The notes below the pieces were generated by a model. That model worked only from the letters and a program-made list of their open reading frames with translations, was not told where the DNA came from and ran no database searches. The position numbers and the translations under genes are program-made. From Carcharhinus longimanus (lineage: Eukaryota), in NCBI GenBank assembly GCA_030264375.1, contig JASCQW010000162.1, positions 96,002,558-96,066,557 of the forward strand: DNA of 64,000 nt, written 5' to 3'. Below, in pieces: positions 41,800 through 46,599 of this stretch. Numbering within the stretch: the first letter of the stretch is position 1; the number at the start of each line of letters is the position of its first letter.

Positions 41800-42756
41800 A
41801 TGAAGTGATCCCATTACCAACAAATAAGATCTAAGCACTGCAGTCTTGCCACATCCAGTTGTGGATGTGTCCGACAATTAAACCACTCACTAGAGAAGAA
41901 GGCTCCACAACTATCCCATCCTCAATGGTGGGAGAGCCTGGCACATCAGTGAAAAAGATAAGGCTGAAGCATTTACAGGAAGTGTCAAATGGATGATCCA
42001 TTTCAATCTCCTACTCCAGACTAGGTCCCCAGCATCACAGATGCCAGTCTTCAGCCAATTTGATTAGTTCCATGTGATATCAACAAATGGTGAAAGTACT
42101 GGATACTGCAAAGGCTATGGGCCCTAACAACATTCTAGCAATAATACCCAAGACTTGTGCTCAGAACTTGCTGCTCCTCTAGCCAAGCTGTTCTAGTGCA
42201 GCTACAACACTGGCACCTACCCAGTAATATGGAATTTGCCCAGGTAATATCATGTACACAAAAAGAAAAATCCAACCCAGTCAATTACTGCCCCATCACT
42301 CCACTGTCAGTAAAGTGATAAATGGGGTCATCAACAGTGCCATCCAGTGGCACTTACTTAGCAATAATCTGCTGTCTGATACTTGGTTTGGATTCTGCCA
42401 AGGTAATTCAACTCCTCATCTCATTGTTGCCTTGGCTCAAACACAGACAAAAGAGCTAAACTGAGTGTGACTGCCCTTGACATCAAGGCAGCATTTGACG
42501 GAGCATGGCAGCAAGAAACCTAGTAAAATTGAAGTCATTGAGAAGCAGAAGGGAGCTTCCCCACTGACTGAAGTCATACCGGCACAAGTATGATGATTGT
42601 AACCGTTGGAGGTCAATCATCTCACAGTTCCAGGCCATTCCTGCAGCAGCCTTTCAGGATGGTAGCCTAGACTGAACCATATTCAGCTCCTTCATCAATG
42701 ACATTCCTTCCATTATAAGATCAGAAGTGGAGATGTTCACTGATGACTGCAAAATG
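41800..42756 (+). mobile_element. Zenon-like LINE RT fragment
   Basis: AMGPNNI, ELAAPLAKLF, TALDIKAAFD, FINDI and EMFTDD motifs. Confidence 0.85.
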
Positions 42757-42983
42757 CCTTTATTCCTCAATTTCTTCTCCCTTTTAGAACATGACAGCTG
42801 GTGCTGTTTCAAATGGGGAGACAATACTCCAATTAGTAGATCTCACTTGCCTGAAGTTTCATGGTATTTTACCTTTAGCAATCCTTTCCCTAGTCAACTA
42901 AGATTTTGATCACTACATGTTGAGAAAAAAAAACAGAGGAAAAGGTTTGAGTATTCTACTCCCACAATAGCGTTTTTGAATGC

Positions 42984-43916
42984 AGGGCTGTGGCAAGTGG
43001 CGTTCCTCAGGGATCAGTGCTGGGACCTTTGCTGTTTGTAATATATAAACGATTTGGAGAAAAACGTAACTGGTTTGATTAGTAAGTTTGCAGATGTCAC
43101 AAAGGTTGGTGGATTTGCAGATAGTGACGACGACCATCAGAGGATACAGCAGGGTGGAGATCAGTTGGACACTTGGGCGAAGAGATGGCAGATGGCGTTC
43201 AATCCGGACAAATACGAGGTAATGCATTTTGCAAGGTCTAAAGCAGATGGGAAATATACAGTAAATGGCAGAACCCTTAAGAGTATCGACAGGCAGAGGG
43301 ATCTGGGTATACAGGTACACAGGTCACTGAAAGTGGCAATGCAGATGGAGGAGGTAGTCAAGAAGGTATAGGAATGCTTGCCTTCATCAGCCGGGGCATT
43401 GAGTTTAAAAATTGGCAAGTCATGTTGCAGCTTTATAGAACCTTAGTTGGGCCGCACTTGGAATATAGTGTTCAATTCTGGTCACCACACTACCAGAAAC
43501 ATTTGGAGGCTTTGGAGAAGGTACAGAAAAGATTTACCAGAACGTTGCCTGGTATGGAGGGCATTAGCTGTGAAGAAGTTGGAGAAACTTGAATTGTTCT
43601 CATTGGAATGATGAAGGCTGAGGGGAGACCTGATAGAAGTTTACAAGAGTATGAGAGGCATGGACAGAGTGGACAGTCAGAAGCTTTTTCCCTGGGTGGA
43701 AGAGTCATTTTCTAGGGGGCACAAGTTTCAGGTGCAAGGGGCAAAGTTAAAGGAGATGTACGAGGCAGATTTTGTTTACACAGAGTAGTGGGTGTCTGGA
43801 ACTCATTGCTGGGGAGGTAGTGGAAAGGTAGGGGGTTTTAGTTCAGTCGGGGCAGTGCAGGTTTGGAGGGCTGAAGGGCCTGTTCCTGTGCTGTAATTTT
43901 CTTTGTTCTTTGTTCT
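42984..43916 (+). mobile_element. 5'-truncated CR1 LINE ending at the ANKFN1-like exon acceptor
   Basis: [34 protein letters not shown]; 3' stem gggctgaagggcctgttcctgtgctgta and tail ttctttgttctttgttct. Confidence 0.93.
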
Positions 43917-43918
43917 AG

Positions 43919-44129
43919 TATTTGCAGTGTAACGAGGCTTTATTTGAAGCTATTGGGCAGCGGGATCTTGATGCTGTGCACTTACTGCTCACTCAGTACA
44001 GCTTGGATGAACTGGGGCTCAACACCCCCAATCTCATGGGGCTTCTGCCATTGGACATCGCCATCATGACCAATAACATTGGTGTTGCTCGGACCCTCAT
44101 GAAGGCCGGAGCCAGGGAGAGCCCACACT
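43919..44129 (+). CDS. ANKFN1: Internal coding exon (ankyrin-repeat region) of an ANKFN1 / wide-awake-like gene, possibly a paralog
   Basis: Translates YLQCNEALFEAIGQRDLDAVHLLLTQYSLDELGLNTPNLMGLLPLDIAIMTNNIGVARTLMKAGARESPH, collinear with recalled human ANKFN1 NFQGNEAMFEAVEQQDMDAV...LNTPNSEGLTPLDIAIMTNN...GARESPHF. Acceptor ttctag at 43913-43918, donor GTGAGT at 44130, phase 0 to phase 1 (split codon T|TT would give the F of ESPHF). Confidence 0.9.
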
Positions 44130-44409
44130 GTGAGTGCCAGCATGGAGCCTTCCATTGTTTCACTTGATGCATTATTTTGTAAACAGGTCAGATTTCATTC
44201 TTTCGAATACCTTGTAGCTTAACCCAAAGTATTTACTTAATCTGCTTCACTTACTGACTTGATTCACCTTCCCAGTAAAATGACAGGACTAAAGTTTATG
44301 AAACAAGTCAAGACTAATTTTCCTATTTGGATATTGTTCCTGTTGCTTTATTATTTTAATTTGGTTTTTTGCACAAGATCCTATTCAGAATCCATTAACC
44401 GCCAATTCT

Positions 44410-44858
44410 GGAGGTGAGTGTGACTCCTGTTGACTTCAAGGCTGCATTTAACTGAGTGTGGCATCAAGGAGCCCGAGCTAAGCTGGAATCCATGGGAATC
44501 AGGGGGAAAACTCTCCGCTGGTTGGAGCCATACTCGGCACAAAGGATGATGGTTATGGATCAATCATCTCAGATCCAGGTCATTACTGCAGAAGTTATGT
44601 ACCAACTGACACAATAAGGACCTACCTTATGTTAATTCTTTCTCTACACCCCAGCTATGACTGCAACACTACATTCTGCACTCTTTCCTTTCCTTCTCTA
44701 TCAATGGTATGCTTTGTCTGTATAGCATGCAAGAAATTATTACTTTTCACTGTATGCCACTACATGTGACAATAATAAATACATCAATCCGGTTTCTCAG
44801 GATAGTGTCCTTGGCCTAACCATCTTCAGCTCTTCATCAATGATCTTCCCTCCATACT
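44410..44858 (+). mobile_element. Zenon-like LINE RT fragment, interrupted
   Basis: DFKAAFN*VWHQG..MGIRGKTLRWLE, resuming at SQDSVLGLTIFS after the insert. Confidence 0.75.
44598..44790 (+). mobile_element. Rex/Babar-like LINE 3' UTR
   Basis: Closely similar to 61845-61999; ends tacatgtgacaataataaat. Confidence 0.7.
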
Positions 44859-45465
44859 GTCAGACCCCACTTGGAGTACTGTGCGCAGTTCTGGTCGCCT
44901 CACTACAGGAAGGATGTGGAAGCTATTGAGAGAGTGCAGAGGAGATTTACAAGGATGTTGCCTGGATTGGGAGGCATGCCTTATGAAGATAGGTTGAGGG
45001 AGCTAGGTCTNNNNNNNNNNNNNNNNNNNNNNNNNNNNNNNNNNNNNNNNNNNNNNNNNNNNNNNNNNNNNNNNNNNNNNNNNNNNNNNNNNNNNNNNNN
45101 NNNNNNNNNNCTACAAGATTATGAGAGGCATGGACAGAGTGGACAGTCAGAAGCTTTTTCTCAGAGTGGAACAGTCAATTACCAGGGACACAGATTTAAG
45201 GTGTGAGGGGCAAGGTTTAAAGGAGATGTACAAGGCAGATTTTTTTTTTTTTTACACAGAGTGGTGGATGCTTGGAACTCGTTGCCAGGGGACATAGTGG
45301 AAGCGGATACAGCAGTGACTTTTAAGGGACATCTTGACAAATACATGAATAAGATGGGAATAGAGGGATACGGTCCCTGGAAGGATAGGGGGTTTTAGTT
45401 AAGTAGGGCAGCATGGTCAATGCAGACTTGGAGGGTCCGTAGCTGAGGTGTAATTTTCCTTGTTC
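44859..45465 (+). mobile_element. CR1 LINE 3' part across a gap (may be two copies)
   Basis: RPHLEYCAQFWSPHYRKDVEAIERVQRRFTRMLPGL; the post-gap part is the same subfamily as 43640-43916. Confidence 0.88.
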
Positions 45466-46599
45466 ACTGTAGGTAAATTATGGATGAATTTGTAAACATG
45501 ACTAGGGAGGTAAAAAAAAACTTGATTTCACAAGCATCCCTGACAATCGGTTAAGATCCAAGTTATTTACTTTCCGTCTGCCTGTATCTTTCTTTTCTGT
45601 GACATATTTGTGTTGCATGTTGTTGGTTGAACCAACACAAAAACCAATTATTGCACTGTCCATATTAATTATATGCTGCTCAACAACTACTGGGAAACAT
45701 TCAGTGATGCATGGTGTATCACTGGAACCCGTGAAATCAAATAGTCAGTTCTGCAAAATGTCATAGAAATGCCTTTCAGTGTTGCTGTTTTCTCTCTACA
45801 TAATAAGATTATTAGCCAGCTTTTTTAAAACTGTCTTTATCTTGCAAAGTTTGAGATCTGCACAGTACAGTAAAATTCACCAACCTCACTTTGACCCTTT
45901 GGCTTGAACCTTTATCATCCTGTTAACAAATCAAATCTAATATAAATCATGTGGACTCCATCAATCAACACAAGCTTCCTTTAATACTGCACCATCATTT
46001 TTTCCTCCCCCCCCCCCGCGAACTGCGATGGGGAATTGCTGAAAAGGAGAGCTTTTAAAATGGAACATTGATAGCACAATATAAAGTTATGGCTGTCCAT
46101 TTTCCTGATTTTGGAAGAGAGACATCTAATTTCTCCACAACGGTTTAAAGTATGAATGGAATCCATTTTACATATTCCACATTAAAAAATATCACTGTCC
46201 CTTTGGGAACATAACTTACTGGGCTGGGTTTTGCGATAAGAATTACAGCGTGGCTGTCAGTAAATCAGACAAAAACATCTGTCGCCTACACATATGCAGT
46301 TAAATATGGAAATCTGGAAGCTTCTATCAAAAATGCTGTGTTCCTCCACAGGGATCACTGCAGTTGCCCTCGCCAATAGACTCAACACAATGATGTGAAG
46401 TCGCCCTTTACAAATAATAGAAAAGGTTAGAGCTATTGCACTCAGGAGTCAGAGTTTGTGGACATGATATGTGATATTTGCTGCCAAAATATTAATTTTA
46501 CAAATGTGGAGTCTCAGTCCTTCAGAAGCTCATTAGAGTTTGTGCTTCTTTTAAAAAAATTGCCTGTCTTTTTTTTCCTCTCTCTCAACCCCATTAGTC

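Follow-up and report, generated by a model that had tools for sequence, protein, structure and literature searches.

Most known cases of retroposons inserted at 3′ splice sites are alleles that are both harmful and recent. In canine merle, a SINEC_Cf element lies at the boundary of intron 10 and exon 11 of PMEL; the merle report covers cryptic-merle alleles and describes short alleles in which the original acceptor is kept in use (PMC6091007). We analyzed a 64,000-nt stretch of Carcharhinus longimanus DNA (contig JASCQW010000162.1; hereafter the window, with positions counted from its first nucleotide), in which a CR1-type LINE adjoins an ANKFN1-like exon; all window features discussed lie on the forward strand. 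As in merle, a retroposon is located where an intron meets an exon, 5′ of the original AG, and use of that AG can continue. In merle, however, an antisense SINE, young and polymorphic, created an alternative acceptor and caused 162 bp to be exonised, whereas at the shark locus the 3′ end of a sense LINE, ~8% diverged and present in several species, abuts the AG, and the protein is predicted to be unchanged.

SINE insertions near acceptors are also described for dog FAM161A and HCRTR2 (PMC3976383). These are alike in that an insertion between branch point and AG displaces the host signals, but they result in exon skipping and disease, whereas the shark LINE brings its own tract and a candidate branch point. 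Exonisation of transposable elements in vertebrates, including CR1 in chicken, is treated in PMC2911107. It shares with the present case that LINEs and SINEs bear ready-made tract-like sequences usable by the spliceosome, but exonised elements enter the mRNA, whereas at the shark locus none would, and the LINE would replace only an intronic signal, that of an old exon. Among shark retroposons, HER1 is a LINE of the CR1 clade with a microsatellite tail. The HER1 LINE and the HE1 SINE, named as a pair in a table of PMC3747384, are comparable, by description and not by sequence, as shark retroposons that have their 3′ end in common. The comparison literature also includes PMC4760211 and PMC4488434. 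In a literature search carried out mostly outside subscription papers and supplements, no paper was listed that treats this locus or a fixed CR1 tail in the place of a host tract.

The sequence favors, with a probability of roughly 0.7, a reading in which a sense CR1-type LINE abuts the AG, both polypyrimidine tract and branch point are likely provided by its T-rich tail, and the exon likely is still spliced at its ancestral first codon.

The CR1-type LINE and its 3′ tail

The LINE occupies 42970–43916 (947 nt) as a 5′-truncated copy that is collinear with family copies over the whole span. It contains the end of ORF2, corresponding to the C-terminal part of the reverse transcriptase (RT) and carrying stops and frameshifts, followed by the 3′ UTR, from which ~75–80 nt near 43821–43825 and another ~8 nt are deleted. 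Its 3′ end is the (TTCTTTG)-type tail typical of the family. This tail, ttttctttgttctttgttct, ends at 43916 and is followed by AG at 43917–43918 and the codon TAT at 43919, and all of these coordinates, given in an earlier note on this DNA, were confirmed. The same tail was present in all 29 other copies fetched by a 3′ query, indicating that the pyrimidine tract before the exon is LINE-derived, as that note had held. The exact tail occurs 2206 times in the genome and is followed directly by YAG in 58 cases, so the AG at 43917–43918 lies outside the family tail sequence. This AG is at the same position in two paralogues and in homologues, and it likely is the host's own AG, with 0–3 host nucleotides left between the LINE tail and the exon.

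The microsatellite tail at 43897–43916 is the candidate polypyrimidine tract (18/20 pyrimidines) and the sole pyrimidine-rich stretch before the exon. A LINE-derived TAAT at 43893–43897, with its A at −22, is a candidate branch point; the tract is assigned to the element by family alignment and the branch point by motif only. No other AG was found in the 40 nt before the AG at 43917–43918.

We examined the affiliation of the LINE with Pfam and a protein search. RVT_1 scored above the Pfam cut-off in four of six frames from sister copies, which identifies a reverse transcriptase, and Pfam gave no match for the two ORF2 pieces of the window LINE itself, both of which lie past the RVT_1 core. The best 120 matches to the RT were mostly bird RT proteins at 40–50% identity, a ranking of matches and not a tree with labelled clades, and the LINEs of chicken are mainly CR1 according to PMC2911107. 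The family shows traits of the CR1 clade, in that its copies end 3′ in short tandem repeats and not in poly(A) and are frequently 5′-truncated. The LINE likely belongs to this clade. The RT of the shark LINE shares 76% identity with a protein filed under Carnobacterium maltaromaticum (P0138, on a contig of 3.0 kb) and 66% with one filed under Klebsiella pneumoniae (P0160, on a contig of 1.6 kb); both likely represent animal DNA inside bacterial assemblies.

The LINE body differed privately at 62 of 786 positions (7.9%), near the upper end among 15 control copies, and the organisms that carry the LINE differ by ~1–2% in the exon and downstream intron. Since the LINE is so much more diverged than these organisms are from one another, the insertion appears to be old, predating their split. 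The private differences were spread unevenly along the copy (20/257, 12/257, and 30/272), and the same was true of the controls. The window contains more LINE fragments flanking the exon, at ~41800–42755, 44400–44830, and 44840–45470, the last of which spans a gap at 45011–45110.

The exon start and its candidate acceptors

The exon at 43919–44129 is an ANKFN1-like coding exon with ankyrin repeats, 211 nt in length and running from phase 0 to phase 1, and is directly followed by the splice donor GTGAGT (44130–44135, with the GT at 44130–44131). The earlier description of the exon as intact was borne out, as its frame is open and 69 of 70 residues are identical to the Mustelus asterias ANKFN1-like model. 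A protein search yielded 147 homologues, nearly all the named ones being ANKFN1 or ANKFN1-like; statistics on homologues given here are based on the best 120 of these matches. Ank matches in a Pfam scan of the exon were weak and below the cut-off, and membership in the ANKFN1 family is indicated by the homologous ankyrin-repeat exon together with further exons on other scaffolds. The gene Nmf9 is the same as Ankfn1. The assembly contains a single copy of the exon plus two paralogous exons, and three ankfn1 paralogues next to noggin genes are described for cartilaginous fish (PMC10869764).

The position of the exon start was examined in the gene and its relatives. The upstream exon ends in ...SSL followed by GTAAGT, in phase 0, shark models read SSL-YLQCNE or SSL-NFQCNE across the boundary, and both ANKFN1 paralogues of the C. 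longimanus genome have an AG at the same codon, in agreement with the homologues. Judged from these comparisons, the exon start at 43919 is an ancestral, conserved phase-0 position.

Acceptors were scored with a weight matrix. Thirty ANKFN1-family acceptors of the same genome were picked by eye from protein alignments, and 29 of them entered the matrix, one being left out for a coordinate error. The AG ending at 43918 scored 9.6 bits, above 25 of the 29 references (leave-one-out) and above 99.95% of the 4216 AGs in the window. A second in-frame AG, at 43926–43927, scored 7.8 bits, above 22 of the 29 references. It might be argued that the LINE tail serves as the tract while splicing occurs mostly at this CAG, so that YLQ is dropped and the frame is kept. 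This is improbable, since the site lies only 7 nt behind another AG, the Gln that it encodes is present in every one of the 118 matched homologues, and YLQ is retained in three shark models. The same Gln was found in 118 of 120 homologues (the motif did not match in the other two), which indicates that the second AG is an ancestral Gln codon, older than the LINE insertion. The earlier note thus located this AG and its effect on YLQ correctly, but the AG is not a product of the insertion.

The supposed original acceptor at the other end of the LINE fared differently. The earlier note took gtttttgaatgcAG, with an AG at 42984–42985, for host sequence that could contain the displaced acceptor. The AG is present, but all 39 non-self matches of a 5′ query aligned across this sequence (38 starting at 42970–42973 and one at 42977), and one copy (L042) carries the identical GAATGCAG followed by GGCTGTG. 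The 5′ junction of the LINE is thus located at 42970/42971 and not at 42985, and 42971–42985 was rejected as an acceptor remnant because it is LINE ORF2 sequence. The AG ending at 42985 scored 1.9 bits; its use would lengthen the exon by 933 nt and bring in a stop at codon 21, close to the ~930 nt of stop-containing LINE that had been predicted to be exonised.

Just upstream of the actual junction, the sequence reads ...cccacaaTAG, so that TAG flanks the LINE on both sides. The TAG at 42968–42970 could be the left member of a 3-nt target-site duplication and could be a remnant of the old acceptor. Its length is compatible with the peak of 3–5 bp that PMC4245944 gives for CR1/L2 duplications. 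Matches of at least 3 nt also occurred in 87 of 930 shuffled pairings and at 4 of 30 other LINE copies, and the possible duplication is no better than chance. The AG at 42969–42970 scored −2.9 bits, lower than all 29 reference acceptors, and splicing there would meet a stop at codon 3. With this score and a duplication not above chance, it is at most a possible replacement candidate for the old acceptor.

Two further features were observed in the 5′ flank. At 42930–42969, just 5′ of the LINE, an ACAGAGG is similar to what lies upstream in the family itself and is followed by a small inverted repeat, GAGTA-TTC-TACTC; this flank may include letters added at integration. A strong acceptor-like site of 7.3 bits is present at 42765–42787. 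It lies 183 nt 5′ of the LINE, within single-copy DNA, and a GT occurs at 42864; the open frame overlapping the site gave no Pfam match.

The proposal that the insertion occurred at the intron/exon boundary and that the tail rescued splicing was upheld in its first part, by the family alignments, the conserved exon start, and contigs from three organisms. Rescue in the sense of selection was not supported: the tail carries no private changes (0/35), and the same holds for 4 of 15 control copies.

Read-derived contigs and the assembly

Twenty-four read runs were listed, 20 of which contain part of an exon-plus-intron query, and contigs were compared for four of them. None of the 24 runs is on record as RNA; six, guessed to be RNA, contain 0.16–0.53 of the query words and count neither way. 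The tail-exon junction is crossed by contigs in three of the four runs compared, namely X1 from organism A (43891–44222, with no differences), X7 from organism C (43891–44389), and X14 from organism E (43881–44370). X1 is possibly the source sample, and the contigs of organisms C and E carry species-specific differences. At least 31 nucleotides on both sides of the junction are present in X14 only, as X1 and X7 have 28 to the left of the exon. The presence of the junction in contigs of three organisms indicates that it is real and no assembly artefact, and its unbroken passage in X1, X7, and X14 speaks against the presence, in these three, of another exon copy that lacks the LINE.

The fragmented assembly with its scattered exons could suggest that the entire adjacency of LINE and exon is artefactual. 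This reading is now very improbable and has largely been refuted by the independent contigs, two of which, with differences of their own, come from organisms other than that of the possible source sample. In the fourth run, X6 from organism B, the contig with the exon starts exactly where the putative TAG duplication does, at 43916, and does not include the tail; this could be explained by low depth (3.5), a difference in repeat length, or a LINE-free allele. No empty-site joint was found among the 15 joints listed of 156.

A different assembly error has to be considered within the element. The junction may be real while the assembly joins two LINE copies somewhere in 42970–43916, in which case the 5′ flank would be foreign. 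This reading is compatible with the preferred one and we regard it as a possibility of some weight, although unlikely on balance. The ANKFN1-like exons are split over five scaffolds, C105, C162 (the window), C137, C166, and C175, with the upstream exon at C105:49683405–49683608 and further gene parts at C137:788222–846836 (a locus riddled with gaps), C166:10650298–10650471, and C175:7084490–7084657. The next exon (residues 134–197) was not found in the assembly, and the window showed no overlap with the other scaffolds of the gene at ≥92–93% identity; GC content was not decisive. Contigs are misplaced in this assembly, and synteny read from it is unsafe. No contig in the four runs spans the LINE at 42970–43916, the stretch 42820–42883 has depth in only X1 of the four runs, all of which cover the downstream intron (a hole that proves nothing), and 42970 is poor as an acceptor. 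Against a mis-join, individual family members align collinearly with the copy over its length, TAG is present at both ends, the uneven divergence along the copy is equally seen in controls, and an X1 contig (42683–43000, 11 differences) contains the junction of the 5′ flank with the LINE. None of the listed differences of this contig falls in 42756–42947, and 54 unaligned letters lie upstream of 42683; a further mis-join or an allele in an older repeat is possible at 42683–42755. A mis-join inside the LINE would void the statements on the 5′ flank and leave the tail-exon junction untouched.

We also compared the coding sequence among the read runs. Organism C has two exon changes, both silent, and organism E has one silent change and three replacements (Y>H, N>H, and L>V), which is no sign of strong constraint on the exon. 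Conceivably, splicing was impaired by the insertion, most transcripts lack the exon (at 211 nt, with a frameshift), and the paralogue is decaying. The paralogue is indeed fast evolving, its exon being 74–81% identical to those of other sharks, the replacements in organism E fit this reading, and SINEs close to acceptors cause skipping in dogs (PMC3976383). Decay is nevertheless quite unlikely, as no stop or frameshift was found in the exon in any of the four runs, 69 of 70 residues match M. asterias, the acceptor score is strong, and 12 other listed exon matches are free of stops.

Proposed course of events and its meaning

The favored reading, continued splicing at 43919 with the LINE tail as tract, would involve the following steps. 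Integration of the LINE would have taken place at the host (T)AG or no more than one or two bases from it, and the old tract would have been pushed ~950 nt upstream and decayed, or been lost. The allele might have been tolerated because the family tail, with its TAAT, its T-rich repeat, and 40 nt without AG, already resembles a 3′ splice site. It could then have spread with the protein unchanged. The locus probably represents an old, real, and neutral replacement of the intronic signal of an acceptor.

In a broader and more doubtful proposal, the sense 3′ end of this elasmobranch CR1 family would be a portable cassette of branch point and tract, and survivable insertions would repeatedly swap the acceptor signals of conserved exons with the protein untouched. 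A search for other exons behind a tail plus YAG covered 30 of the 57 other sites and gave 15 frames of at least 25 aa, none with a Pfam match, at a low sensitivity, since the true exon itself falls below the cut-off.

Retroposons at acceptors are already known from dog merle and FAM161A, and the present case varies this theme modestly, in that the replacement, by the tail of a sense LINE, is old, shared, and apparently silent. For shark phylogeny, the presence or absence of the LINE can be used as a marker. On its own the case is a curiosity, and recurrence would raise its importance; the cassette proposal, if true, would mean that splice signals of sharks and rays turn over by a hidden route. 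The old, shared insertion shows that splice signals may turn over while an exon boundary stays fixed.
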